From Parcubacteria group bacterium (GTDB taxonomy: Bacteria; Patescibacteriota; Patescibacteriia; Patescibacteriales; GWC2-42-12): a stretch of DNA of 64,000 bases. Of the stretch, positions 8-61,691 are shown in pieces. Every line of letters begins with the position of its first letter. Position 1 is the first letter of the stretch. Position numbers and translations under genes: made by a program. The notes below the pieces were generated by a model that was given only the letters and a program-made list of their open reading frames with translations, was not told the DNA's origin and ran no database searches. The stretch is from the NCBI GenBank assembly GCA_016188785.1, contig JACPHD010000020.1, positions 3,306 to 67,305 on the forward strand, written 5' to 3'.

Positions 8-2893
8 ATGGAGGAGATCGGCAAACAGGCCGAGCAGATGAAGCAAGAGGCTGAACAGGCAATGAGGGAAGCAAAAGAAACTGGTGCTGATGAGATTACC
101 GAGGAGCAATTGCAAAAGCTGAAAGAGCAACTTGAACAATTGGAAGAGGTTGCCAAGCAAATTGCCGAGAGCGGCGCGTTGGAAAAAGAGCTCGCAAAAC
201 CGGAAGAGGAGCCGATGACTTACAATATCAAGGAATACGGCATTAACGAAGCCGAGCTCACTTCCGAGCAATTGGAGAATCTGCAGAAAACCAGGGTCTT
301 TGCACAAAATACTTCAAAAGTGTATCGCACGGCGATGCATCTTTTGATGATCGGCTACCAGCAAAAAAATCCTAAGTTTACGGACAAGATGATGCAGAAA
401 ATGATAGAGCGCAGTTATGATCTTCCTGATTTTTCTTTATATGGATCACGAGCGGCAGATGAATTCTTGTCAAAACAACAAGAACTAGGCATAGACGGTT
501 TTAGCGACAATTTTTTAGTGAATTTCCAACTGCCCCGACCTCTCGCAAAATTTTGGTACAAGGGCGGCAATGGGAGCAAGTCCGTACCGGTAAAAGAGGG
601 CGAGATCGAATGGGGGCATTTTTATAGAATGTGCATGCCCGTAATTTATAACGGAGTTGATCGGGCGCAGATGTCCGGTCTTTATCTGAATCGTTTGAAT
701 CAGTTCGGTCAGCATGATCCCAAAAAGTATTATTATCTTTGGGAGACCATAGACCTGGCGCAGGAAAAACAAAAACAGGAAAATGAAGCTCTTAAGGAAA
801 TGCAGGAACAGCTGAAAGAGATGAAAGAAAAATTGGATGAGATGAACGAACAATCCGGGAAGTCCGATGAAAAAGATGACCAAGCCGGACAAAGCGGAGA
901 AAAAAGCGAAAGCTCTAAACAAAAATCCAACGAGCAGAAACAATCCGTCCAGGAAAAGCAATCATCCGAACAAGGCGAGAATAAACCGTCGGCGCAAGAA
1001 CTTAAAAAGCAAATCGATGAATTGAAAAAGCAGGTTGACCAAATGATCAAAGACGCAGAAGAGCGGGGCGACCAAGCCGCGGCAGATGAGCTGAAAGAGA
1101 TGAAAGAACAGCTCGAACAAATGTCAAAAAAACTTGAAAAGGATGAACAGGGGGAAAAGGGCGAATCCGGCGAGCAGGGAGAGGGTCAAGAATCTGAAGG
1201 GCAAGAGGGTGAATCCGGTGAAAGTGAGGGTCAAGGCGAATCATCTCAAGGAAAAGGATCTGGCCAATCTGGCTCCGGGCAAGGACAAGGTCAGGGTGAA
1301 GGTGCAGGAGAAGGCGGTCAGGGTGGATCACAAGGCGGCCAGCCGGGTAAAGGTATGGGGCAAGGCGGTGGTCAACCTCAACCGGGCGGTCAAAAAGGAA
1401 TGGGTCAGGGGCCCGGCCAACCGGGAGGAGCAGAAGGGTCTGGTGAAATGGGTGGCGGCATGACTTCCCCGGGAGAGATGAAAGAATTGATGGATCAGAT
1501 GCAAGAGATGCTTAATCAGGCCAAAGAGCAAGGTGGTGTTCCCGGAGGTCAAGAAGCCATACAACAAATGCTTGACGAGCTTGCTTCGATGCAAGAAAGT
1601 TTGCAATCAGGAGCAAGTCCTCAAGAGTTAGCCAAGCAGATGTCGGAAGCTATGCAGAAAATGTCCGAAATGATGGGCGGCGAGGAAGGAGGCGAACCGG
1701 GACAGGATGGCCAAGAACAAGGGCAACAGAGTGAATCCGGTGGAGCATCAGGCCAAGAATCTTCTGGCGAAGGGTCTGAACAATCTGAAGGCGAATCCGG
1801 AGAGCAATCACATGACCAATTCCAAAAGGGCGGGAAAACGCATGAAGGAGCTGTTGAGGGAATGTTTAGTAAACCCAATGAAGAGTTATTAAAGCAACTT
1901 CGACAAGCTGAGGAAATGGTCGGCAGTAAATTTACCACTCAAGATGAAAGTGGCAATCTTGTGGCGAGAGATATGAGTCAGTCAATGGGTGAAAGTTTAA
2001 AAGCTGAAACCTCTCAACTTTCTCAAGCTCATGTGCGACAGATGGAAACGTTGGAAGAGCTCAAAAGACAACAGCAGTCAAAAATGGAAGCCATGTATCG
2101 GGAAATGTCGGGGCTTGATGGTGAAACTCTTCGCGTTTATGTGGATTATATGGAATCGTTGAAAAATTTTCGTGGAGAATTTAAAGAATTTTTAATAAAA
2201 AAGTTAAAATTAGATAAAAAATATTTAGAAGAGCGTAATAAAACAAGAGGAAGTCGTATGCAGAGAGATTTCCAGCGAAAAATAGTTGGTAAAAATCGTG
2301 ACGGTAAGCTAATAATACTTCCTACAATCATGAAAAGAAAAAGACCTCCAAGTCATCCAAATATTTGTTTTTCTGTAATAATTGATAATTCCGGTTCATG
2401 CTCTGGAGAAATAATTGAACAAGAAAAAAGAGTAGCGGTAAATTTGATTGAACTGGCAGATGAGCTTGATATAAATTTGGAAATAGTAACCTTCGGCGGT
2501 CCTGATCAATTTACATTTCTTAAGACATTCGAACAGAATATCGCCGGCGATGACTTGCAAAAAGTGGTATTGCTCAACGCAGATCAGGGAACGCCCGATG
2601 TTGTGACTCTTGATGCCGCCTGCACAAGTATGGAAAAATTCACTGATAAGTTTAGACGATCATACAATTTTGTGTATTTTATGACCGACGGACAATCCGG
2701 CTCAGGCTCAATTCAAGAAGTCATTAAAAAACACAAAAAGGATATGGTGATCACCGGTATCGGGATGGCTGGGGCGGCGCAAAACATAGCTCAGACATGG
2801 GGCAGAAATGCGGTCGAAGTGCCCGAAGTAAAAAAATTATCCGATGCTTTTATTAGAAAAGTTGAGGATCAGATAGATCAAACATTCGATTAA
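8..2893 (+). CDS. von Willebrand factor A (vWA/MIDAS) domain protein with a long acidic/Gly-Gln-rich low-complexity linker; possibly 5'-partial
   Basis: 961-aa ORF with no in-frame stop up to the window edge. C-terminal VIIDNSGSCSG matches the DxSxS MIDAS motif, and FMTDGQSGSG lies in a vWA-like fold pattern. Residues ~250-620 are E/K/Q/G/S low complexity. Confidence 0.7.
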   Translation: MEEIGKQAEQMKQEAEQAMREAKETGADEITEEQLQKLKEQLEQLEEVAKQIAESGALEKELAKPEEEPMTYNIKEYGINEAELTSEQLENLQKTRVFAQNTSKVYRTAMHLLMIGYQQKNPKFTDKMMQKMIERSYDLPDFSLYGSRAADEFLSKQQELGIDGFSDNFLVNFQLPRPLAKFWYKGGNGSKSVPVKEGEIEWGHFYRMCMPVIYNGVDRAQMSGLYLNRLNQFGQHDPKKYYYLWETIDLAQEKQKQENEALKEMQEQLKEMKEKLDEMNEQSGKSDEKDDQAGQSGEKSESSKQKSNEQKQSVQEKQSSEQGENKPSAQELKKQIDELKKQVDQMIKDAEERGDQAAADELKEMKEQLEQMSKKLEKDEQGEKGESGEQGEGQESEGQEGESGESEGQGESSQGKGSGQSGSGQGQGQGEGAGEGGQGGSQGGQPGKGMGQGGGQPQPGGQKGMGQGPGQPGGAEGSGEMGGGMTSPGEMKELMDQMQEMLNQAKEQGGVPGGQEAIQQMLDELASMQESLQSGASPQELAKQMSEAMQKMSEMMGGEEGGEPGQDGQEQGQQSESGGASGQESSGEGSEQSEGESGEQSHDQFQKGGKTHEGAVEGMFSKPNEELLKQLRQAEEMVGSKFTTQDESGNLVARDMSQSMGESLKAETSQLSQAHVRQMETLEELKRQQQSKMEAMYREMSGLDGETLRVYVDYMESLKNFRGEFKEFLIKKLKLDKKYLEERNKTRGSRMQRDFQRKIVGKNRDGKLIILPTIMKRKRPPSHPNICFSVIIDNSGSCSGEIIEQEKRVAVNLIELADELDINLEIVTFGGPDQFTFLKTFEQNIAGDDLQKVVLLNADQGTPDVVTLDAACTSMEKFTDKFRRSYNFVYFMTDGQSGSGSIQEVIKKHKKDMVITGIGMAGAAQNIAQTWGRNAVEVPEVKKLSDAFIRKVEDQIDQTFD

Positions 2894-2937
2894 TTTAAAA
2901 ACTATGCCTGAAAAAAATTGCAAAATAAAATTACCTA

Positions 2938-3534
2938 ATGTCAGCCGCTAATTTTTCCATAATTTTACCCTGGGTTTTAGTTCATGGCTATTTAATGATT
3001 TTTGTCGCCATTATAATTGGCGGTCCGATTTTTATTTCGGCCGCGGCCTTTGCCGCGGCCTTGGGTTATTTTAATGTTTATTTTATTTTCAGCTTGGCCT
3101 TTTTCGGTGAAATCACGGTTGATATTACGCTTTATTTAATCGGCTATAGCGGTCGCGCGGGCCTGGTAAAAAAATTCGGCCATTATTTCGGTTTAACTGC
3201 CGCCAGAATTTTAAGCTTGGAGAAACTTTTATCCCGGCATGTCTGGAAAGCGCTGTTTATAATTAAATATTCGCCGATTATACCGGTACCAGGTTTTATT
3301 ATCGCCGGCGCGGCCAGGCTTGAATTTAAGAAATTTTTTTATATTTTATTCATTTTAAGTCTGCCTAAGGCGGTTTTTTTTACTATGATAGGCTATTGGT
3401 TCGGCCGGGCTTATGAAACGTTCGCCGGTTATTTTTATTATGGCCAATATTTGATTGTCGTAGTAATAATTTTATTTATAGCCGCGCATTATTTATTTAG
3501 CCACTTTTCTAAGAAAATATCCGAAAAAAAATAA
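2938..3534 (+). CDS. DedA/VTT-family integral membrane protein
   Basis: 198 aa and multi-TM. The GEITVDITLYLIGY...KYSPIIPVPG pattern is typical of the DedA (SNARE-associated) family. Confidence 0.65.
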   Translation: MSAANFSIILPWVLVHGYLMIFVAIIIGGPIFISAAAFAAALGYFNVYFIFSLAFFGEITVDITLYLIGYSGRAGLVKKFGHYFGLTAARILSLEKLLSRHVWKALFIIKYSPIIPVPGFIIAGAARLEFKKFFYILFILSLPKAVFFTMIGYWFGRAYETFAGYFYYGQYLIVVVIILFIAAHYLFSHFSKKISEKK

Positions 3535-3541
3535 AATTAAT

Positions 3542-4729
3542 ATGAAGATCGCTATTTTTTCCGATAATTTTTACCCGGAGTTAAGCGGCATTTCTGATTC
3601 AATAATTTTGCTGGCTCGCGAGCTGGCCAAATTAAATCATGAAATAAATTTTTACGCGCCTAAATATAGCGCCAAGAATTATCAGGTCTTGAATTTAGCC
3701 GATCAAGAATTGGACCTTGGAGAAAATATTAAAATTAAACGGCTATTTTCTCTGCCAGCGTCGTTTATTAGTGATTATTCCAGGATAGTTATTCCCGTGC
3801 CGTGGCGCCGGCTGTTTAAAAATTTTAAGCCAGATATTATTCATACTCAGCTTTTTTTCGGCGCTGGGCTAAAAGCGCTGGCCGCGGCAAGATTAAATAA
3901 ATTTCCGCTGGTCGGCACTAATCATACGGCTATTTCAGAATTTATAAAACTCGCGCCGCTTAAGCTTAATTTTTTAAAAAATTTCAGTTTGAATTACGCG
4001 GTTTGGTATTATAACCGCTGTAATTTCGTAACCGCGCCGTCGCAATCAGTCTTTAAAGAAATGTTAGCTTACGGTTTTAATAAACCGCATCAAGTTATTT
4101 CCAATCCGCTTGATCTTAATACCTTTCGTCCGTCAGACCATAAATCAGAGTATAAGAAAAAATTTAATTTGTCCGATAAGGTCGTCGTCTATGCCGGCCG
4201 CTTATCTTTGGAAAAAAATATTGACGCGCTGATTAAAGCCGCGGCTTTAACTAAAAAAAGAATCAGTAATATTAATTTAGCTATCGCCGGATCAGGCCAG
4301 TTTGAAAATGAGCTTAAGCGACTAGTCAAAGAATTAGGTATAGAAAATGAAGTTAAGTTTTTTGGCAGATTAAGTAAAGACGATTTGGCAAAATTATATC
4401 AAGCCGCGGAAATTTTTTCTATCGCTTCCACCTCGGAAACCCAGAGTTTGACTTTAATGCAGGCCATGGCTTGCGGCCTGCCGGCCGTAGCGGTTGACTC
4501 GCGGGCTTTACCGGAATATGTTAATGGGCAAAACGGTTTTATAGTAAAAGCCGGCGATGAAAACGTTCTGGCGGAAAAATTTATTTTTCTTTTAGCCAAT
4601 AGTAAACTGCGCCAAGAATTAGGTCGCGGCGCGGCTGCTTCTGTCCAGCAATTTTCCGCTGAAAATATCGCCAAACAGTGGGAAAAGCTGTATGGCAGGG
4701 TAATAGAGGATTATAAAAATAAGGCTTGA
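3542..4729 (+). CDS. glycosyltransferase family 4 (GT-B, GT4)
   Basis: 395 aa. N-terminal MKIAIFSDNFYPELSGI and C-terminal AGRLSLEKN...STSETQSLTLMQAMACGLPAVA (E-x7-E region) are typical of GT4. Confidence 0.85.
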   Translation: MKIAIFSDNFYPELSGISDSIILLARELAKLNHEINFYAPKYSAKNYQVLNLADQELDLGENIKIKRLFSLPASFISDYSRIVIPVPWRRLFKNFKPDIIHTQLFFGAGLKALAAARLNKFPLVGTNHTAISEFIKLAPLKLNFLKNFSLNYAVWYYNRCNFVTAPSQSVFKEMLAYGFNKPHQVISNPLDLNTFRPSDHKSEYKKKFNLSDKVVVYAGRLSLEKNIDALIKAAALTKKRISNINLAIAGSGQFENELKRLVKELGIENEVKFFGRLSKDDLAKLYQAAEIFSIASTSETQSLTLMQAMACGLPAVAVDSRALPEYVNGQNGFIVKAGDENVLAEKFIFLLANSKLRQELGRGAAASVQQFSAENIAKQWEKLYGRVIEDYKNKA

Positions 4730-5727: not shown

Positions 5728-5903
5728 GTCATTGCGAGGACCTTAATTTTAAATTGTCATTGCGGGCTCCCGCCCGCCTCGCAAGCGAAGCGTTGCGGGC
5801 GCGGTGACCCGCAATCCAGGACGATGGGAATATTGACCAACATGGTTTTTCTGGATTCCTGCTTTCGCAGGAATGACGAAAGTAATTTACTCTTCGCAAT
5901 GAC
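5728..5903. repeat. cluster of GTCATTGCG/GGAATGAC TIR-type palindromic repeats with a nested GC-rich CGCAAGC palindrome
   Basis: GTCATTGCGAG (5728), GTCATTGCGGG...CCCGCCCGCCTCGCAAGCGAAGCGTTGCGGGC...CCCGCAATCCAGG, CTGGATTCCTGCTTTCGCAGGAATGAC, and CTTCGCAATGAC (ends 5903). The same words recur at 12 or more other loci. Confidence 0.85.
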
Positions 5904-10975: not shown

Positions 10976-11051
10976 TCTTAAAAGAATTATTCGTTTTTAT
11001 ATCTCAAAAAAAATAAATTCAAAGCGGCCAATGTAAGGTCAGGATGTTAAT

Positions 11052-12488
11052 ATGGATTTTAAAAAAATAAAAAAAATATATTTAATCGGCGTTAAAGGCG
11101 TGGGCATGACCATGCTGGGGCAATATCTGGCCGCCCAAGGCGCGCAGGTAAGCGGTTCGGATGGGCCGGAAAAATACATGACTGACGCGGCGCTGAAAAA
11201 TTCCGGCATAAAAATTATTGAGCATTTTAATGCGGCTAATATACCTAAGGACGTTGATTTAGTTATTTATTCAACCGCTTATAATGCCGAAACTAACGTT
11301 GAAGTGGCCGTGGCTTTGTCTGGAAAAATAAAAACGCTTACTTACGCCCAGGCTCTGGGCGAAGTGTTTAACCAGAAATACGGTCTGGCCGTGGTTGGTT
11401 CGCATGGCAAAACCACGACCACGGCCTGGTTAGGCTATGTTATGAAAATGGCCGAGCTTGAACCCAGTGTTATGGTAGGCGCCTCTGTACCGCAATTTAA
11501 CGGCTGCGCTTTAACGGGTGAGTCTGATTATTTATTGATTGAAGCGGATGAATATCAAAACAAACTTAAATATTACGAGCCCAAAGCCGTAATTTTAACT
11601 AATATTGATTATGATCATCCTGATTTTTTTTCCACCGCGGAAGATTATAAAAATGTTTTTCTAGAATTTATAAAAAAAATTCCGGTTAAAGGATTTTTAG
11701 TCGCGAATTTTGACGATCCGCTAATTAGAAAAATCGCCAGAGTGAATTGCCGCGGCCAAGTTATAACTTATGCTCTTAACGAAGCGGCCGATTATGTGGC
11801 TTATGATATTAAAAGCGACGGGCAGAGGCAGTATTTTAAAGTAAAATTAGGGGCAGGAGATGAAGATAATCCCCCCTACCCCCCTTTATCAAGGGGGGAT
11901 GAGCTGGGTGATTTTTCTATTCGGCTCTGTGGTCGGCATAATATTTATAATGCTTTGGCCGTGATTGCCGCTAGCGTTGAGCTGGGCATTGAGCTTTTTA
12001 AAATCAGAAAATATTTAGAAGAATTTTCCGGCGCGGCCAGAAGAATGCAGGTTTTAGGCGAATTCAAGGGCGCGCTGGTAATTGACGATTATGCCCATCA
12101 CCCCACAGAAATAAAAGCTACTCTGGAAGCGCTGCGACAGAAATATGGCGGCCGGAAATTAGTCGTGGCTTTTCATCCGCATACTTTCAGCCGCACTAAA
12201 GCTTTGTTTAATAATTTTGCCCAAAGTTTCAGCCAGGCCGATGAACTGATTATTATTGACATTTACGGTTCGGCGCGAGAAAAACAAGGCGGGGTGAGTA
12301 GTTTGGAATTGACGAGAGAAATAAGAATCAGGAATCAGGAATCAGGAATCAGGCAAACTGTGGATCATATTCCAACGCTGGCTGAATGTGAAGAATATTT
12401 ACGGCGAAAAGCCAAGAGAGATGATATTATTGTGTTAATGGGCGCCGGGGATATATTTAGGGTAGGAAATAATTTATTGAGCAAATAA
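11052..12488 (+). CDS. murC: UDP-N-acetylmuramate--L-alanine ligase, carrying two in-frame repeat insertions
   Basis: 478 aa. GVKGVGMTMLG, GSHGKTTTT P-loop, DYDHPD, GRHNIYNALA and DDYAHHPTEI motifs. Insertions at 11871-11899 and 12326-12353. Confidence 0.9.
   Translation: MDFKKIKKIYLIGVKGVGMTMLGQYLAAQGAQVSGSDGPEKYMTDAALKNSGIKIIEHFNAANIPKDVDLVIYSTAYNAETNVEVAVALSGKIKTLTYAQALGEVFNQKYGLAVVGSHGKTTTTAWLGYVMKMAELEPSVMVGASVPQFNGCALTGESDYLLIEADEYQNKLKYYEPKAVILTNIDYDHPDFFSTAEDYKNVFLEFIKKIPVKGFLVANFDDPLIRKIARVNCRGQVITYALNEAADYVAYDIKSDGQRQYFKVKLGAGDEDNPPYPPLSRGDELGDFSIRLCGRHNIYNALAVIAASVELGIELFKIRKYLEEFSGAARRMQVLGEFKGALVIDDYAHHPTEIKATLEALRQKYGGRKLVVAFHPHTFSRTKALFNNFAQSFSQADELIIIDIYGSAREKQGGVSSLELTREIRIRNQESGIRQTVDHIPTLAECEEYLRRKAKRDDIIVLMGAGDIFRVGNNLLSK
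11871..11899. repeat. C/G-run hairpin element (CCCCCCTACCCCCCTTTATCAAGGGGGG) in-frame inside murC
   Basis: Read directly. It translates as PPYPPLSRG within an otherwise MurC-like region. Confidence 0.7.
12326..12353. repeat. tandem heptamer AATCAGG x4 inside murC
   Basis: Four perfect AATCAGG copies, translated as RIRNQESGIR. Confidence 0.9.
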
Positions 12489-12493
12489 ATAGT

Positions 12494-12592
12494 TCTAATA
12501 ATACGAATTACGAATTTGTTACGAATTTACAAATACTGTCATAAATGTTTTGTTTAATTTCGTAAATTCGTAAAGGATTTGTAATTCGTATA
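12494..12592. repeat. AT-rich heptamer-tiled palindrome (ACGAATT/TTCGTAA words) after murC
   Basis: ATACGAATTACGAATTTGTTACGAATTTACAAAT ... ATTTCGTAAATTCGTAAAGGATTTGTAATTCGTAT form inverted arms. Confidence 0.75.
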
Positions 12593-12595
12593 TTT

Positions 12596-14386
12596 ATGAA
12601 AGAAAAATTAAACTTAAAATTAGATAAAAGGCCGGTTAAGATGCGGCAATTTTGGCGAAGATTGTGGCGGCTGATCGCGCCAACTCATAAGCAAATTATT
12701 TATTTGTTTATTTTAATCGCGGCTTATGAAATTTTTAAATTTGTCGGGCCGTATTTGCTTAAAAAAATTATTGATTTGATCACTGATTTTAAGCCCGAGC
12801 ATATAAAGAATATATTATTTTTTATATTTTTAATTTTAATTTTTGATTTAGTAGTGGCTATAATTGATTATTTCGCGGATAAAGAAAGTTTTAAGATATT
12901 AGCTGAAGTGGAAAGATACTTATCGGTTAACGCTCAGGAAAAAATGGTCAGGCTGGGCCTGGCTTATCATGAAAGAGAAAATACCGGCAATAAAATATTT
13001 AAAATCAGGCGCGGCATTGATAAAATAATTGAACTGTTGATGAATTCATTTTTTGAAGTCGGTCCGACCGTAATTCAGGTTATCCTTACCGCCATCATCA
13101 TGTTTTTTGTGGACTGGCGTTTTGGCTTGATTTTTTCTTTATTCGCGCCGCTGTTCGCCTGGCTGACCGCCAAACTGAATTTAGAAATTAGCCCTTTGCG
13201 CAAATTCCGGCATGACAGGTATGAAGAAGCGGCCGGTAAAATGGCCCAGACTATTATCAATATCAATACGGTAAAATCGTTCGTCCATGAAGAGCGGGAA
13301 ATAAAAGAATACGGCGCCATCGAGCAGAAAACTAAGCGAGTGGCTTTGTTTGAACATTTTAAAATGCTGAAATTTAATTTTTCCCGGATTATGGTAATAA
13401 CTTTAGGCCGGATTTCAATTATACTGTTCGGCGTTTATTTGGCCTGGCAGGGCAGTATCACTGTCGGCAGTCTGGTTTTTATTATTACCATTTCGGAAAA
13501 AGCTTTAATTTCTTTGTTTAGAATTTCCCGGCTGTATGACCGGATTATGGATTCAAGCGAAGCTATTGATCTGCTGTATAAATTAAATCGCGAAGCGCCG
13601 GACATAGTTAATCCCGAACAGGGCCTTAAAGTTAAAGGGCTTAAAGGCGCGGTTGAATTTAAGCAAGTTGATTTTATCTATCGCCATAGCAAAGTAAAAG
13701 CGCTTGACCGGGTAAGTTTTAAGATCAATGCCGGCGGTTTTACGGCTTTGGTCGGTCCGTCGGGCGGCGGCAAGACCACGGTGGCGCGCCTGATTTACCG
13801 CCACTACGATCCGGCTTCGGGCGCGGTCCTGCTTGATGGCAAAAATTTAACCGAATATGATTTGTACGGCTTTAGAAAATTCATGGCTATTGTGCCGCAA
13901 GAGGTGGAAATTTTTGATTCCAGCGCTAAAGACAATATCGCTTACGCCAGGCCGGATGCGAGTTTTAGGGAAATTACCGCCGCGGCTAAAATCGCCAATG
14001 CCGCGGAATTCATTGAAAAATTAGCTCAAGGCTATAATACTTTAGTGGGCGAGCGGGGCATAAAACTTTCCGGCGGACAAAGACAGCGCCTCGGCATCGC
14101 CCGGGCCGTACTGGCTAATCCGAAAATTTTAATTTTTGATGAAGCCACCTCTAATCTGGACTCTTACAGCGAGAAATTAATTCAAGAAGCTTTAAGTAAA
14201 ATCAGCCGCGGCCGAACGGTTATCGTGATCGCCCATCGGTTGAGTACAATTCAGCAAGCCGATAAAATAATCGTTTTGGAAAACGGCCAGGTGGCGGAGC
14301 AAGGCAGCCATCATGAACTTGCTAAAATAAACGGCGGTTTATATAAAAAATTGTTAAATCTCCAGCGATTGGGGGATATCAAGTAG
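12596..14386 (+). CDS. ABC transporter, fused permease/ATP-binding protein (MsbA-like exporter)
   Basis: 596 aa. Six-TM N-terminal domain, Walker A GPSGGGKTT, LSGGQRQR signature, and Walker B ILIFDEATS. Confidence 0.9.
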   Translation: MKEKLNLKLDKRPVKMRQFWRRLWRLIAPTHKQIIYLFILIAAYEIFKFVGPYLLKKIIDLITDFKPEHIKNILFFIFLILIFDLVVAIIDYFADKESFKILAEVERYLSVNAQEKMVRLGLAYHERENTGNKIFKIRRGIDKIIELLMNSFFEVGPTVIQVILTAIIMFFVDWRFGLIFSLFAPLFAWLTAKLNLEISPLRKFRHDRYEEAAGKMAQTIININTVKSFVHEEREIKEYGAIEQKTKRVALFEHFKMLKFNFSRIMVITLGRISIILFGVYLAWQGSITVGSLVFIITISEKALISLFRISRLYDRIMDSSEAIDLLYKLNREAPDIVNPEQGLKVKGLKGAVEFKQVDFIYRHSKVKALDRVSFKINAGGFTALVGPSGGGKTTVARLIYRHYDPASGAVLLDGKNLTEYDLYGFRKFMAIVPQEVEIFDSSAKDNIAYARPDASFREITAAAKIANAAEFIEKLAQGYNTLVGERGIKLSGGQRQRLGIARAVLANPKILIFDEATSNLDSYSEKLIQEALSKISRGRTVIVIAHRLSTIQQADKIIVLENGQVAEQGSHHELAKINGGLYKKLLNLQRLGDIK

Positions 14387-45626: not shown

Positions 45627-45713
45627 AGTTTCATACTACAATGGCTGGCCGGTTTAAGCAAGAGCGATTTTTCTTGCCATTTCTAATGTTATATGTTATT
45701 TTAATAATGTTAA

Positions 45714-45763
45714 CCCCGTTAAATCCCAATTATTATTGGGGCGTAAAGCATATTTTAACGGGG
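45714..45763. repeat. CCCCGTTAAA...TTTAACGGGG hairpin element, copy 3
   Basis: Arms TTAACCCCGTTAAA / TTTAACGGGGTTAA with a 30-nt interior. Confidence 0.8.
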
Positions 45764-45788
45764 TTAATCAATCGCTAAATGCGGTTTC

Positions 45789-45850
45789 GCGCTGTTACCG
45801 CGCCCGCTAACGCCTAAGCGTAGCGATGGCGGGCGGGGCTCAGTTGGCAG
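45789..45850 (+). pseudogene. tRNA-Lys 5' fragment (22 tRNA nt, 26-nt repeat with the 5' TTTC flank) interrupted by a 40-nt GC-rich palindrome
   Basis: GCGCTGTTA (45789-45797) plus GCTCAGTTGGCAG (45838-45850) equals the first 22 nt of the tRNA at 46106, and the preceding TTTC is also shared. The insert at 45798-45837 is CCGCGCCCGCTAACGCCTAAGCGTAGCGATGGCGGGCGGG. Confidence 0.8.
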
Positions 45851-45859
45851 GCAAAGTAT

Positions 45860-46096
45860 ATGTATTATACTTATGTACTAATCAGTATAAAAGATAAAAA
45901 ATTATATATTGGGTTTACTAATGATTTAAGCAAAAGGTTTCTTGAACATCAGAATGGCCAAGTAAATTCCACAAGAGATAGAAGACCATTAAAATTAGTA
46001 TATTATGAGGCTTGCCATGATAAATATAAAGCCTTAGGCAGGGAAAAATATTTTAAAACAGGTTTTGGCAGAAAGTTTTTAGAAAATAGAATATAA
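45860..46096 (+). CDS. small GIY-YIG nuclease-domain protein
   Basis: 78 aa. YYTYVLIS...KLYIGFTNDLSKRFLEHQNG...RPLKLVYYE is the GIY-YIG (URI) signature. Confidence 0.85.
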   Translation: MYYTYVLISIKDKKLYIGFTNDLSKRFLEHQNGQVNSTRDRRPLKLVYYEACHDKYKALGREKYFKTGFGRKFLENRI

Positions 46097-46105
46097 TATA
46101 ATTTC

Positions 46106-46181
46106 GCGCTGTTAGCTCAGTTGGCAGAGCAGCTCCCTTTTAAGGAGAAGGTCACTGGTTCGAATCCAGTACAGCGCACCA
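46106..46181 (+). tRNA. tRNA-Lys (anticodon UUU), CCA encoded
   Basis: The cloverleaf was read manually. Acceptor GCGCTGT/ACAGCGC, D arm GCTCAGTTGGCAGAGC, anticodon loop CTTTTAA, T arm ACTGGTTCGAATCCAGT, and terminal ACCA. Confidence 0.9.
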
Positions 46182-46182
46182 A

Positions 46183-47340
46183 ATGAAAGATCAGGAATCT
46201 AGAAAAGTTTTAAAGATTTTCGGCTGGGCTTCGTTTTTAAACGATTTTGGCTCGGACATAATTTTTCCTTTGTGGCCGATATTTCTGACTTCAGTGTTAG
46301 GCGCCAATATGGCGGTTTTAGGTTTTATTGACGGCCTGGGTGACGCTATAGTTTCTATAGCTCAAGCTGTTGCCGGCTATCTGGCTGACAAAACCGGCAA
46401 AAGAAAAATTTTTGTCTGGCTGGGCTATGTTTTTGCCGGCCTGGCCCGCCTGGGTTACGCGCTAGCGCCGGCTTGGCAATATCTTATTCCGTTTCGCGTC
46501 TTAGATCGGGCCGGGAAAATGCGCGGCGCGCCCCGGGACGCTATTATCGCGGATATTTCTACCGCTGAAAATCGGGGCCGGAATTTCGGCTATTTAAGAA
46601 TGATGGATAATTTAGGCGCGGTTGGCGGCGTGATTTTTACTATTTTATTTTTTAAGTATTTAGGTTATCGCCATATTTTTCTGTTGGCCGCTCTGCCATC
46701 GTTGGCTGGCGCGCTTCTTGTTTGGCGCTCGATAAATGAGAATTTAGCCGTTGACAAAAAGATTTTTAAAGGCATCAGGTTTAGTGATTTTCACCGTGAT
46801 ATGAAATTATATTTGCTACTTAGCGCGGTTTTCGCCTTAGCTTCTTTTAGCTATTCGTTTTTACTTATTTTTGCCGAGCAAGCCGGCTTCGCGGTTGTTG
46901 TCATACCGGTTTTGTATTTAGCCTATAACATCGTGGCCTCGCTGGTCTCTTTGCCGTTCGGCAAATTAGCCGATAAAATAAATCGCCGAACCGTGCTTCT
47001 CTTATCGTTTTTCTTTTGGCTATTGGTTTGCGCGGTTTTTATTTATTTTCATAATCCGGTAGCTATGGTTATAGCTTTTTTACTATACGGACTGCATTTA
47101 GGCGCGATTGAGCCGGTGCAGAAAGCGCTAGTGTCTGAACTGTCAGTATCTGAATTTAGAGCCAGCACTTTAGGCAGTTTTCAGATGGTGGTAGGATTAG
47201 CGGCCTTGCCCGCTTCTTTAATTGCCGGTCTGCTCTGGGATAAAGTTAATTTAGCCGCGCCCTTTTATTTTTCCGCGGCCTTAACTATAATAGCTATAAT
47301 AATGCTCTTATTCGTTAAAGAAAAAAGAGTTGCTGTTTAA
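46183..47340 (+). CDS. MFS transporter
   Basis: 385 aa with ~12 TM segments and an MFS-like motif, LADKTGKRKI, between TM2 and TM3. Confidence 0.85.
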   Translation: MKDQESRKVLKIFGWASFLNDFGSDIIFPLWPIFLTSVLGANMAVLGFIDGLGDAIVSIAQAVAGYLADKTGKRKIFVWLGYVFAGLARLGYALAPAWQYLIPFRVLDRAGKMRGAPRDAIIADISTAENRGRNFGYLRMMDNLGAVGGVIFTILFFKYLGYRHIFLLAALPSLAGALLVWRSINENLAVDKKIFKGIRFSDFHRDMKLYLLLSAVFALASFSYSFLLIFAEQAGFAVVVIPVLYLAYNIVASLVSLPFGKLADKINRRTVLLLSFFFWLLVCAVFIYFHNPVAMVIAFLLYGLHLGAIEPVQKALVSELSVSEFRASTLGSFQMVVGLAALPASLIAGLLWDKVNLAAPFYFSAALTIIAIIMLLFVKEKRVAV

Positions 47341-47351
47341 GTAGTTTATAA

Positions 47352-47567
47352 GCCACCCTAGCTCAGTTGGTAGAGCAACGGTTTTGCCCGCCCGCCTCGC
47401 AAGCGAAGCGTTGCGGGCAGGCCCGCCCGCCTTGACATGCCGAAGTAGCTCAATGGTAGAGCAACGGTTTTGTAAACCGTAGGTTACCGGTTCAAATCCG
47501 GTCTTCGGCTCAAGGCATGTCGGGCGCGGTAAACCGTAGGTCGTCGGTCCGAATCCGACGGGTGGCT
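47352..47567 (+). tRNA. tRNA-Thr(UGU) outer gene, interrupted in the anticodon loop by a 143-bp insert (halves 47352-47386 and 47530-47567)
   Basis: The joined halves give acceptor GCCACCC/GGGTGGC and D arm GCTCAGTTGGTAGAGC. The anticodon arm is ACGGT-TTTG|TAA-ACCGT. The T arm GTCGG-TCCGAAT-CCGAC has an unusual C at position 55. Confidence 0.7.
47439..47510 (+). tRNA. tRNA-Thr (anticodon UGU), intact, nested inside the outer tRNA-Thr gene
   Basis: Acceptor GCCGAAG/CTTCGGC, D arm GCTCAATGGTAGAGC, anticodon arm ACGGT-TTTGTAA-ACCGT, and T arm ACCGG-TTCAAAT-CCGGT. No CCA is encoded. Confidence 0.9.
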
Positions 47568-47577
47568 CTTTTTTAAT

Positions 47578-48948
47578 ATGATGAAGACTTACAAAATTTA
47601 TACTTTAGGCTGTAAGGTCAATCAATATGATTCAGGCAAGCTGTCCGCCCAGCTTCAGGCAGCCGGATTAGTTATGGCGGGTAAGCAAGCTGATCTGGCC
47701 ATAATCAACAGCTGTGCCGTGACTAAAACCGCCATGATAAAAAGCGGACGGATGATTAGATCTGCTAAAAAGGAAAATCCAGGGGCGAAAATTGCGTTAA
47801 TTGGTTGCTGGGTTAGAGCTTCTGAAACTAAACTTGCGGGGGTAGATTTTGTAATCGGAGGCAAAGAAATTATTAAACAGATAAATAGAATTATGAATTA
47901 TGAATCAGGAATTAGGAATAAAATTCAAAATCCAAATAATAAAAATAATAAAATAATTATAAATAGTGATAAATCTCGTTATTTTATAAAAATTCAGGAT
48001 GGCTGTGAGCAGTTTTGCAGTTATTGCATTATTCCGTACGCCCGTGGCGGACTAAAAAGCCGGGGAGAGGCGGAAGTTATTGGCGAGGTTGAGCAGGCGG
48101 TAAAAGCCGGCTATGGCGAAATTGTTTTGTCCGGTATTCATTTGGGGCTATACGGAAAAGAAAGTCAACTGCTATATTCTGTCATTCCGGCCTCCGAGCC
48201 GCCCCGCAAAATGCGGGGTGGATTGCGGATCACCCGCCCGTACCGAACGGGTACGTTCGGGCGGGAGCCCGCAATGACAAATTATTATAATGGCGCTCGT
48301 GATGAAAACTTGGCCAGCCTTTTAAAAAAATTAGTTAAACTTAAAAATTTAGGCCGGATCAGGTTGAGTTCTATTGAAATTACCGAAGTAAGCGATGAAT
48401 TGATTGAACTAATAAAAAACAGCGGCAAAATCTGCCGCCAGCTGCATCTGCCGCTCCAGTCCGGTTCGGATAAAATTTTAAAACTAATGAACCGGCCTTA
48501 TGATATGAATTATTTTAAAAATAAAATTAAACAAATCAGGCGAGTTCTGCCGGATATGGCTATTACTACCGATGTCATCGTCGGTTTTCCCGGAGAAAGC
48601 GAAAAAGATTTTCGCGCTACGGAAAAATTTATCAGACAAATAAAATTCAGCCGTTTGCATGTTTTTCCCTTTTCCGCTCAGGAAAAAACGTCGGCCGCGA
48701 AAATGTCCGGACAAGTTAAGGAAAAAATAAAAAAGCGCCGCGCTGATTTATTGAGAAAGTTAAATTTGAAGTTGATGGCAGATTATAAAAATAAATTTAA
48801 AGGCCGAGACCTGAAAATCGCGGTCGAGCAGATCAAACAAAATAAAGTTATGGGCAAAACCGAGTATTATTTTGATGTTTCAGCCGATAAGAAAAGTTTG
48901 AAAAATAAAAATATTAGAGTAGGGCAGATTATCAAGATAAAAATTTGA
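47578..48948 (+). CDS. mtaB: MtaB-like radical SAM methylthiotransferase with two in-frame repeat insertions
   Basis: 456 aa. TLGCKVNQYDS N-terminus, radical SAM motif CEQFCSYCIIPYARG, and a TRAM-like C-terminus. Insertions at 47888-47945 and 48181-48279. Confidence 0.85.
   Translation: MMKTYKIYTLGCKVNQYDSGKLSAQLQAAGLVMAGKQADLAIINSCAVTKTAMIKSGRMIRSAKKENPGAKIALIGCWVRASETKLAGVDFVIGGKEIIKQINRIMNYESGIRNKIQNPNNKNNKIIINSDKSRYFIKIQDGCEQFCSYCIIPYARGGLKSRGEAEVIGEVEQAVKAGYGEIVLSGIHLGLYGKESQLLYSVIPASEPPRKMRGGLRITRPYRTGTFGREPAMTNYYNGARDENLASLLKKLVKLKNLGRIRLSSIEITEVSDELIELIKNSGKICRQLHLPLQSGSDKILKLMNRPYDMNYFKNKIKQIRRVLPDMAITTDVIVGFPGESEKDFRATEKFIRQIKFSRLHVFPFSAQEKTSAAKMSGQVKEKIKKRRADLLRKLNLKLMADYKNKFKGRDLKIAVEQIKQNKVMGKTEYYFDVSADKKSLKNKNIRVGQIIKIKI
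47888..47945. repeat. heptamer tiling (GAATTAT, GAATCAG, GAATTAG...) inside mtaB
   Basis: GAATTATGAATTATGAATCAGGAATTAGGAATAAAATTCAAAATCCAAATAAT, translated as IMNYESGIRNKIQNPNN. Confidence 0.8.
48181..48279. mobile_element. GTCATTCC...CGCAATGAC TIR element (99 nt = 33 codons) in-frame inside mtaB
   Basis: GTCATTCCGGCCTCCGAGCC...CCCCGCAAAATGCGGGG...CGGGAGCCCGCAATGACA. The GC-rich block translates as VIPASEPPRKMRGGLRITRPYRTGTFGREPAMT. Confidence 0.8.
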
Positions 48949-61357: not shown

Positions 61358-61589
61358 TTGAATTTATTATTGTCATTGCGGTAGTTGCCTCCGGATTGTC
61401 ATTGCGGCCTCCGAGCCGCAATCCAGGTTTCAACGCCACGAATATTCTATTTAACAATCAACTCAACCAACCGAACTGCCTACGGGTTTAACCTGCCGCG
61501 CCCGCCATGCGAGCCGCAAGGCGAGGCGGGCGGGGATTCCCCCCGCCCCGCATTTGCGGGGCGGGGCGGGAATGACAAGAAAGAAAAGC
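61358..61589. repeat. 232-bp composite of GTCATTGCGG/GGAATGAC and GC-rich palindromic repeats bounded by a 20-bp direct repeat
   Basis: GGCTATGTTTATGTTGTAAG occurs at 61338-61357 and at 61590-61609. The interior shares GTCATTGCGGCCTCCGAGCCGCAATCCAGG and ACCGAACTGCCTACGG with the unit at 19447-19578. Confidence 0.8.
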
Positions 61590-61691
61590 GGCTATGTTTA
61601 TGTTGTAAGGAGAGGAGGGAATGAACATTGACAATTAAGTAAGTGGTGGCGAAAAAGGGAAAATTAAAAAAACAAGAAGAGGAGAAAGGCA

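Follow-up and report, generated by a model that had tools for sequence, protein, structure and literature searches.

In the DNA of a Parcubacteria group bacterium (contig JACPHD010000020.1 of assembly GCA_016188785.1), a complete tRNA-Thr(UGU) cassette sits within the anticodon loop of a resident tRNA-Thr(UGU) gene, at positions 47352-47567 of the 64-kb stretch that our analysis of this genome covers and that we call the window throughout. This arrangement is probably due to a replacement cassette that acts at the level of DNA, is devoid of open reading frames (ORFs) and is bounded by inverted repeats, rather than to an intron, with the inner tRNA as the working gene.

Anatomy of the Nested Locus

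The resident, or outer, gene is divided by an insert of 143 nt between its nucleotides 35 and 36 (table 1), 72 nt of which form the inner tRNA while the other 71 nt are non-tRNA sequence. Two modules, both without ORF, make up this insert: a tRNA cassette of about 108 nt, called E4b, and a hairpin-only module of 35 nt, E4a, lying directly upstream of it. Once the outer halves are joined, the segment ...GGTTTTG runs into TAAACCGTAGGTCGTCGGTCCG, giving a continuous UUUUGUAAA loop and the acceptor stem GCCACCC/GGGTGGC, the acceptor of the inner tRNA being GCCGAAG. One G leaves the register of the junction in the window ambiguous (35/36 or 34/35); since relatives carrying arms of type C, described below, fix the site, we place the interruption at 35/36. 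The entire stretch of 216 nt adopts a fold of two cloverleaves, one nested in the other (dG -106.6; z = -6.7 vs shuffled sequences). Default runs of ARAGORN and Rfam call the inner tRNA alone; with introns allowed, as the initial annotation of this DNA had recommended, ARAGORN recovers the outer gene as tRNA-Thr(tgt) at 47352-47568, interrupted at position 35 by 143 nt. Re-derivation of the locus confirmed that annotation in its coordinates, its sequence and its description of a split tRNA-Thr(UGU) gene harboring an intact tRNA-Thr(UGU), and the 19-nt 3' segment in which it had noticed partial complementarity to the 5' flank corresponds to the right arm, L2, which pairs with the left arm, L1.

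No promoter belonging to the nest was found within 450 nt upstream, and a terminator-like site lies at 47547-47563 plus the following T-run, within and after the outer 3' half. In relatives, a stem-loop terminator, CCCGTAAAACGGG plus T-run, follows tRNA-Thr (L129, 2962-2995); this stem-loop is gone from the window, where the T-run at 47568-47577, 10 nt before the MtaB start codon, is all that is left of the terminator.

Table 1. Features of the nested locus, of the related hairpin modules and of the upstream tRNA-Lys region, in window coordinates
Feature	Position	Strand	Remarks
Outer (resident) tRNA-Thr(UGU), 5' half, nt 1-35	47352-47386	+	ends ...AACGGTTTTG
E4a, hairpin-only GC module, 35 nt	47387-47421	+	CCCGCCCGCC-TCGCAAGCGAAGCGTTGCG-GGCAGG
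Left arm L1 of the tRNA cassette	47422-47438	+	CCCGCCCGCCTTGACAT; pairs with L2
Inner intact tRNA-Thr(UGU), presumed functional gene	47439-47510	+	ARAGORN; Rfam RF00005, 78.7 bits
Right arm L2 of the cassette	47511-47529	+	CAAGGCATGTCGGGCGCGG; complementary to L1
Outer tRNA-Thr(UGU), 3' half, nt 36-73	47530-47567	+	T-run directly 3'
E1, hairpin-only module, in the loop of another palindrome	5769-5804	+	32 nt (5769-5800) identical to the start of E4a
E2, hairpin-only module, at nt 9/10 of a tRNA-Lys 5' fragment	45798-45837	-	fragment at 45789-45797 + 45838-45850
E3, hairpin-only module, in an intergenic palindrome cluster	61496-61534	-	
78-aa GIY-YIG nuclease ORF, between the tRNA-Lys 5' fragment and intact tRNA-Lys	45860-46096	+	Pfam PF01541, E = 4e-16
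Intact tRNA-Lys	46106-46181		

The 10-mer CCCGCCCGCC occurs five times in the window, against an expectation of 0.34, and starts the four hairpin-only modules (E1, E2, E3, and E4a) as well as the tRNA cassette E4b; moreover, E1 ends in the same CGGGCGCGG as the tRNA cassette. The GC-rich palindrome of the insert, bracketed by two copies of this 10-mer, had been taken for a secondary insertion with a target duplication. The repeat is real. Its interpretation as a target duplication is rejected, given that the same 10-mer starts all five units; the two copies mark the conserved 5' ends of tandem modules that belong to one element family. Clusters of nested intergenic palindromes, of the GTCATTGCGAG / ...CGCAATGAC type and accompanied by GC hairpins of the form CCCGCC-loop-GGCGGG, occupy 5730-5870 and 61380-61600, E1 lying in one of their loops; similar repeats are also found between tRNA-Lys and tRNA-Thr in L004.

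The Interrupted Gene in Related Genomes

Relatives of the source organism were retrieved via homologs of the flanking MtaB-like protein and the contigs encoding them. This protein has a 100% identical counterpart in a metagenome-assembled genome of a 'Parcubacteria group bacterium'; its next relatives, Falkowbacteria among them, are about 63% identical, and the matches obtained when searching reference genome contigs are all distant (25-30% identity). The order RecR-YbaB-DnaB, tRNA-Lys(UUU), tRNA-Thr(UGU), MtaB is kept in seven related genomes, and in all seven tRNA-Thr is uninterrupted, which supplies the comparison of the orthologous locus that the initial annotation had called for. The joined outer tRNA matches the uninterrupted tRNA-Thr(UGU) at the syntenic site of L129 and L131 in 72 of 73 positions: its 5' half (nt 1-35) departs from them by a single D-loop base, and nt 36-73 are identical. 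Such an identity excludes chance and establishes the outer halves as the resident gene. (MAFFT alignment of the window with L129 and L131 placed the uninterrupted gene on the inner tRNA; the identity matrix was used for the empty-site comparison.) Empty sites are present in L129, L131, L133, and L006, so that a conserved gene exhibits a precise presence/absence polymorphism with respect to the filled site of the window. Judging from these alignments, the insertion into the resident syntenic tRNA-Thr(UGU) was precise and left no duplication of the target. The T-loop TCCGAAT, with C at position 55, had been suspected to signal decay; since it recurs in the uninterrupted, functional orthologs of L129, L131, and L133, it is a trait of the lineage.

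A gene for an MFS transporter (46183-47340) is wedged between tRNA-Lys and tRNA-Thr in the window, with spacers of 1 nt and 11 nt, the distance between the two tRNA genes in the seven relatives being 22-175 nt. An MFS gene 35% identical to that of the window adjoins the end of the tRNA cluster in L150.

Recurrence across Patescibacteria

The nested arrangement is no isolated case. One scan of metagenomes with the pattern GGTAGAGCAACGGTTTTGV, which describes the 5' half of tRNA-Thr followed by anything except the expected T36, returned 37 loci: about 10 chance matches in coding DNA, two ordinary tRNA-Pro/tRNA-Ala genes, five high-GC loci, and 18 distinct inserts in tRNA-Thr, all other than that of the window. 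In each of these 18 loci the 5' half of tRNA-Thr ends in TTTTG and is followed by an inverted-repeat arm; in most of them the complement of this arm and the old 3' half are present as well. Seventeen loci have, within or beside the insert, a complete tRNA-Thr(UGU) in the same orientation, the exception being L152, a contig of 2.2 kb. Clean nests, with a 7/7 outer acceptor stem and the junctions TTTTG/.../TAAACCGT, were found in L136 (insert of 104 nt), L143 and L156 (106 nt each), L163 (119 nt), and L142 (146 nt, with one extra A). L147, L152, and L161 contain multi-level nests and orphan 3' halves, and L137, L151, and L154 have hairpin-only inserts at the same site, an intact tRNA-Thr(UGU) following in each. 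The gene context of most loci, rpsB-tsf-...-Thr(UGU)-Tyr-Thr(GGU)-Trp, differs from that of the window, and their hosts are deeply divergent, with RpsB and Tsf 31-50% identical between loci; two nest loci carry the names of Candidatus Lloydbacteria and Jorgensenbacteria. This family of cassettes thus occupies tRNA-Thr(UGU) genes repeatedly across Patescibacteria.

Scans of viral contigs gave no sign of a phage vector: the 5' part of the inner tRNA had no match, the pattern of the terminal motif produced at least 120 matches, all of them chance matches of high GC with no true member in low-GC DNA, and the junction pattern retrieved chance matches in phage coding DNA alone.

Other observations concern loci at the margin of this family. 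In L135/L166, L157/L160, and L169, high in GC by eye, a tRNA-Thr-like 5' half with TTTTG at its end leads into unrelated DNA, without any tRNA call; these may be junctions of larger integrated elements. On the minus strand of L146, some 250 nt beyond the nest in the downstream direction, GCCAATGTAGCTCAGCTGGTAGAGCAACTCCATGGT resembles the 5' part of a tRNA and gives way to the non-tRNA sequence GGAACGCAAGATCCCGCCC...; Rfam gives no match here at the gathering score. Possibly this is a tRNA-Thr(GGU) gene broken at 36/37, the site reported for divergent group I introns (PMC13011429). The tRNA cluster of L155 contains two paralogous ORFs of about 200 aa, at 11034-11696 (minus strand) and 12475-13077 (plus strand), flanking the tRNA-Thr(UGU) nest; they have an N-terminal homeodomain-like helix-turn-helix (HTH_23) and otherwise no known part, and a GIY-YIG ORF adjoins them. 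L165 has a 67-aa HTH fragment.

Arms and Inner tRNAs of the Cassettes

The arms pair in all 18 cassettes tested, over 9-28 bp, while their sequences belong to at least four unrelated families. Type A (CCYGCCCGCC ... GGCRGGCGGG) is found in the window and six loci, type B (CCCCGY ... RCGGGG) in several loci, type C ((C)TCC(T)CGAT ... ATCGGGA) in L152 and L161, and type D, a perfect stem of 26 bp, in L162, with a homologous degraded version in L153. The CCYGCCYGCC terminus is conserved in the seven type A cassettes from divergent hosts, as is the terminal motif CCYGCC/GGCRGG at the level of sequence, and changes in the terminal 6-bp arm helix of the type A alignment are limited to C-G to U-G. 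Folding the 18 arm pairs in sense and antisense gave equal summed energies (dG -401.7 vs -399.0); the complementarity of the arms therefore looks like that of a DNA inverted repeat, not of an RNA helix accumulating G-U pairs. In every nest that was folded, the old anticodon stem, together with U32-A38 and U33-A37, continues into the L1:L2 helix, with the inner cloverleaf as its cap.

When the seven type A cassettes are aligned, 12 base pairs show compensatory double changes, all of which fall in the stems of the inner tRNA and involve all four of them. Compensation so confined implies that the inner tRNAs evolve as working tRNAs. The inner tRNA of the window is 76% identical to its own outer tRNA and 85-86% identical to the inner tRNAs of L143, L163, and L170. 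Among the outer tRNAs, those of the window, L156, and L163 share 91-95% identity (91-97% with the uninterrupted genes of L129 and L131 included), and the corresponding inner tRNAs are 77-86% alike. To judge by these identities, the inner tRNAs have histories separate from those of their hosts. The arms of the window, too, are homologous to those of L143 (TTGACAT vs TTGCAC; CAAGGCATGTCGGGCGCGG vs CAAGGCGTGTCGGGCGGG), a locus with a different host tRNA and a different gene context.

Origin of the Nests

How, then, did a tRNA gene come to lie inside its own cognate? The explanation that we favor, one of three that the initial annotation had left side by side, is that a mobile unit entered the anticodon loop, carrying an isoacceptor as a replacement; it is supported by the empty-site orthologs, by divergent hosts with different inner tRNAs, by multi-level nests, by the decay of outer halves, and by the near-constant presence of a replacement. 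The cassette and the hairpin module upstream of it would have entered between nt 35 and 36 of the resident tRNA-Thr(UGU), leaving this gene as two flanking halves that presumably yield no tRNA, and the tRNA of the cassette would serve as the working tRNA-Thr(UGU). Because no promoter of its own was found, we propose that the inner tRNA is transcribed by read-through from upstream. It would fold by itself, the GC clamp of L1:L2 extending the old anticodon stem, and RNase P could free its 5' end, after which the 3' end would be trimmed and CCA added. Each new insertion would displace the previous working gene, a succession consistent with the pattern of Russian-doll nests and decaying orphan halves. 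As for movement, we prefer a homing-like gene conversion, in which a nuclease would cut the intact tRNA gene and repair would proceed from the interrupted allele; alternatively, the cassette may transpose as an inverted-repeat-bounded unit resembling a miniature inverted-repeat transposable element (MITE). Taken together, the evidence suggests that the cassettes are an undescribed kind of selfish tRNA-replacement element. That they form a class selfish and autonomous in effect, namely tRNA genes homing into their cognate gene through a nuclease specific for structures or tRNA genes, such as the 78-aa GIY-YIG family described below, we regard as about evenly balanced.

Several points weigh against the replacement cassette. 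The insert, with its 143 nt and no ORF, contains no gene for a mobilizing enzyme, and no such enzyme is tied to tRNA-Thr cassettes of this ORF-less kind. When the empty site of L129/L131 is set against the filled site, no target-site duplication is seen, one ambiguous G at most being shared, which does not fit a classical MITE. The scan pattern itself fixed the break at 35/36, hence the recurrence of this site in the 18 loci does not demonstrate site specificity; at the deeper levels of the nests, which the pattern did not constrain, there is one further break at 35/36 (the orphan 3' half of L161) together with breaks at about 24/25, at 27/28, and at 42/43, and a replaced anticodon arm. The outer halves of the window are flawless, which fits a recent insertion but would also fit continued selection on a spliced product, and the helix of the insert is coaxial with the anticodon stem, as in real tRNA introns. 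On the supporting side, Logan contig L174 (SRR12113431), identical to window 46123-47386 over 1264 nt with 0 mismatches, reads TA at its positions 1265-1266 where the window has CC (47387-47388), exactly at the junction. It may represent an uninterrupted allele beside the same MFS gene in the same population, yet it extends just 2 nt past the junction, and cross-talk in the de Bruijn graph with the identical tRNA 5' half of another organism is possible.

Alternatives to a Mobile Cassette

Among the alternatives, a local rearrangement without any mobile element, through duplication, gene conversion or template switching during replication at a fragile palindromic site, fares best, even if we hold it to be unlikely. 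It is favored by the position of the breaks at the centers of palindromes (tRNA loops and the E1 site), by the identity of the innermost and outermost 5' halves in L161, and by L136, in which inner and outer tRNA share 97% identity and an L2-like trailer is repeated after the outer 3' half, that is, on the resident gene itself. The pattern of L136 would also be expected if a cassette had entered a copy of itself. Contrary to expectations from a local event, inner and outer tRNAs differ by 14-32% in the window, L143, L156, L163, L142, and L170, and the inner tRNA and arms of the window have their homologs in the other host and gene context of L143. On general grounds, moreover, simple schemes of double-strand-break repair or tandem duplication would yield flanking chimeras or tandem copies rather than nests.

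Less probable again is that the insert represents a new class of bacterial tRNA intron, carrying a tRNA and allowing one gene to produce two tRNA-Thr(UGU), a reading we would give only a small chance. RNase P and RNase Z would free the inner tRNA, an endonuclease would remove the arms, and the outer halves would be ligated, for example by RtcB; if true, this would be the first case of protein-dependent tRNA splicing in Bacteria. The precise insertion into an anticodon loop without duplication agrees with this possibility, as do the coaxial stacking of the arms on the anticodon stem in all nests, the flawless outer exons, and the U at -1 and G as last insert base that result from reading the window at 34/35. 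Introns at 35/36 do exist in Patescibacteria tRNA genes, though of group I (PMC13011429). The initial annotation had already dismissed a group I intron and a bulge-helix-bulge (BHB), and both exclusions hold. The size of the insert (143 nt, 72 nt of them tRNA) is incompatible with the former, and no catalytic core is detectable: RF00028 has no match at the gathering score, nor at E <= 10 on 47250-47650, where at E <= 10 Rfam returns tRNA and noise only (YrlA, 20.7 bits, E = 0.06). BHB geometry, characteristic of introns of archaeal or eukaryal type (two 3-nt bulges separated by a 4-bp helix at the junctions), is absent from the folds of eight nests, in which the arm helix is flush with the junctions or 1-4 nt from them and bulges follow no consistent geometry. 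Nor is there a common rule for splice sites. Type A inserts can be read as U/G...G/G, while L161, of type C, has the junction TTTTG/CTCC...GGGA/TAAA and so reads G/C...A/U; the fully read inserts of types C and D (L161, L153, and L162) have G at -1 and, as their last base, A or G (A in L161 and L153). The variety of arm families and the lack of G-U enrichment on the sense strand argue in the same direction.

The fate of the outer halves adds to this argument. Flawless halves occur in five or six nests, including those of the window, L136, L143, L156, and L163, whereas about 11 nests show one or more defects: the anticodon stem may have lost its 3' strand, stems may contain mismatches, single bases may be deleted, additional GC hairpins may occupy the D- or T-loops, or the 3' half may have disappeared. 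A spliced intron would need no replacement gene, but one is present beside all interrupted genes except that of L152; among the 18 scan loci we saw no tRNA-Thr(UGU) interrupted by a hairpin alone without a replacement. Since hairpin-only interruptions always come with a replacement, the inserts appear to be tolerated through replacement, not through splicing, for which we find nothing in support. The suggestion that the insert is an excised intron of a new kind thus gains no backing from the missing group I core, the missing BHB, and arms free of the strand asymmetry typical of RNA.

The same lack of BHB geometry, needed by an archaeal-type endonuclease, and of RNA-type asymmetry applies to the third reading of the initial annotation, resembling a split tRNA, in which the outer halves, paired via the acceptor stem, the anticodon stem, and L1:L2, would function or mature in trans. 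Complementarity between the halves is perfect, and the arms could keep them together; however, the break lies inside the anticodon (35/36), so that an unligated molecule cannot decode, and in most other nests the halves have decayed. We therefore consider this use highly improbable. Split or permuted tRNA genes of the established kind were rejected as well, the halves being co-linear on one strand, 143 nt apart, and devoid of BHB.

Lastly, an assembly error is very unlikely, and a chimeric metagenome assembly has next to no probability despite the short repeats of the locus (19-31 nt in the shared anticodon arm and the 32-nt repeat in common with E1), because the independent Logan assembly L173 (SRR12113425) reproduces window 46121-47416 with 0 mismatches, 5' junction included, and breaks off within the 32-nt repeat, where an assembly with k = 31 would be expected to stop, because the path comes back to the correct outer 3' half, as repeat-induced chimeras do not, because the same architecture recurs at the 18 other loci from other projects and assemblers, and because the host proteins of nest loci L146 and L162 are each found on at least 10 contigs.

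GIY-YIG Nuclease Genes in tRNA Clusters

Returning to the replacement cassette and its possible movement, the GIY-YIG ORF of the window lies outside the insert, 1.3 kb upstream of the tRNA-Thr nest. Ahead of the intact tRNA-Lys come, in this order, a conserved promoter-like sequence (TTGCCA-17-TATTTT), a fragment with nt 1-22 of tRNA-Lys that carries E2 (45789-45850: nt 1-9, the E2 hairpin, nt 10-22), and the GIY-YIG ORF. L008 has the same layout at 2456-2850, with another hairpin center and a frameshifted ORF. It looks as if a nuclease gene had been inserted into the tRNA-Lys gene, restoring it with a new copy. A second promoter-like site, TTGGCA-16-TAGAAT, is present at 46065-46092, inside the end of the GIY-YIG ORF. 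A long conserved hairpin, AACCCCGTTAAATCCCAAT...TTTTAACGGGGTT (45705-45770 in the window, 2370-2440 in L008), separates the shared promoter-like site from the tRNA-Lys fragment and is limited to these two loci with the GIY-YIG insertion.

Homologs of the nuclease lie inside tRNA clusters in L008, L137, L155/158, L156, L170, and L177, with a constant layout: first the 5' fragment of an old tRNA, whose loops often contain GC hairpins, then the GIY-YIG ORF, then a complete cognate tRNA. The target is tRNA-Tyr in L170 and L156. In L137 (minus strand, 2850-3800), a nest in tRNA-Thr(GGU) encloses the nuclease gene, the order being a 5' fragment with D-loop hairpins, the GIY-YIG ORF, a complete tRNA-Thr(GGU), a spacer of 16 nt, and the old 3' fragment with T-loop hairpins. 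L177 (1420-1910) has 5' fragments of tRNA-Thr(UGU) on both sides of the GIY-YIG ORF and a complete tRNA-Thr(UGU) after them; each fragment is broken at nt 10/11 by a homologous GC hairpin, and the two hairpins, which differ by compensatory changes, resemble the cassette arms of L142. The 78-aa family is very widespread in Patescibacteria, with about 70% identity across candidate phyla. Since its genes stand beside both broken and complete cognate tRNAs, gene conversion initiated by the nuclease is a plausible driver of tRNA gene turnover here, and on the same comparison the 78-aa GIY-YIG proteins would be the leading candidate enzyme for the movement of the cassettes.

Comparison with Known Mobile Elements and Disrupted tRNA Genes

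Integrative elements with tyrosine integrases reportedly attach at tRNA genes and reconstitute the gene that they enter. They are kilobases long, encode their integrase, and carry the 3' part only of the tRNA, with one direct-repeat fragment at the far end. The nests share with them the targeting of a tRNA gene, often in the anticodon loop, the tRNA sequence that is brought along, the relics in the form of fragments, and the arrays arising from serial integration; they differ in bringing a whole tRNA within about 108-143 nt, with an old half on either side of it. An integrase-mediated element was rejected for the window, the 143-nt insert containing no integrase gene and the junctions no repeated anticodon-arm core.

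MITEs are small, non-autonomous elements bounded by inverted repeats. As in the case of MITEs, the modules described here are small, ORF-less, and multicopy, have terminal inverted repeats, occur with or without a passenger, and are inserted in either orientation of the frame. Unlike MITEs, they lack a target-site duplication, enter the centers of palindromes or tRNA loops, and carry as passenger a cognate of the target gene. No cognate transposase of the cassette was seen in the window or the loci, where no systematic search for it was made. Elements of the IS200/IS605 type (PATE) and of the integron attC type were set aside, by inspection only, as the ends have no separate subterminal hairpins or R-box cores.

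Closer in taxonomy are the group I introns known from the anticodon loop of tRNA genes of Patescibacteria, the 35/36 site included (Nakagawa et al. 2026, PMC13011429; Williams 2020 bioRxiv 10.1101/2020.01.27.920355). They resemble the nests in belonging to the same phylum, in targeting the anticodon loop, even at 35/36, in their precision without duplication, and in being missed by default tRNA finders. These introns are self-splicing ribozymes of at least 200 nt, with U at -1, G at omega, and no tRNA inside; the insert described here, in contrast, has no catalytic core and no shared splice rule, contains a complete cognate tRNA, and is flanked by outer halves that decay at many loci. The introns of that study were found by requiring a group I match (PMC13011429), a procedure that would have missed the nests.

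For the GIY-YIG ORFs in tRNA clusters, the closest known analogue is SegB of phage T4, a free-standing GIY-YIG homing endonuclease in a tRNA gene cluster (PMC2330249), which drives the preferential inheritance of its own tRNA region. The 78-aa ORFs, with the broken remnant of an old tRNA on one side and a new, complete cognate tRNA on the other, suggest a comparable layout. Homing of the SegB kind, by contrast, replaces sequence and does not nest a gene in its cognate, and the tRNA-Thr insert of the window has no ORF.

In Archaea, disrupted tRNA genes comprise BHB introns as well as split and permuted tRNAs (PMC4033280). Here too, tRNA genes are broken at noncanonical positions by short, GC-rich, helical inserts that are thought to be mobile, with complementary halves; the archaeal systems, however, depend on the BHB, the EndA endonuclease, and a ligase and have no tRNA in the intron, whereas the nests belong to a bacterial host and have no BHB. 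A search of the literature found no description of tRNA-in-tRNA nests. We rate their closest kinship as being with mobile DNA that targets tRNA genes and compensates for its own damage.

Implications

Default tRNA finders report the inner gene of a nest alone, and intron-aware settings give chimeric or 'ghost exon' calls; both kinds of miscall affect the tRNA counts behind estimates of genome completeness. The nests offer an observable route to split, nested, and fragmentary tRNA genes, and so bear on the origin of disrupted tRNA genes and introns. Their pattern points to an uncharacterized activity recognizing tRNA genes or the centers of palindromes, for which the 78-aa GIY-YIG proteins are candidates. 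In the very reduced genomes of Patescibacteria, tiny cassettes appear to turn over tRNA genes; if this is true, a selfish element can occupy an indispensable, single-copy RNA gene without splicing, by replacing the gene that it destroys.

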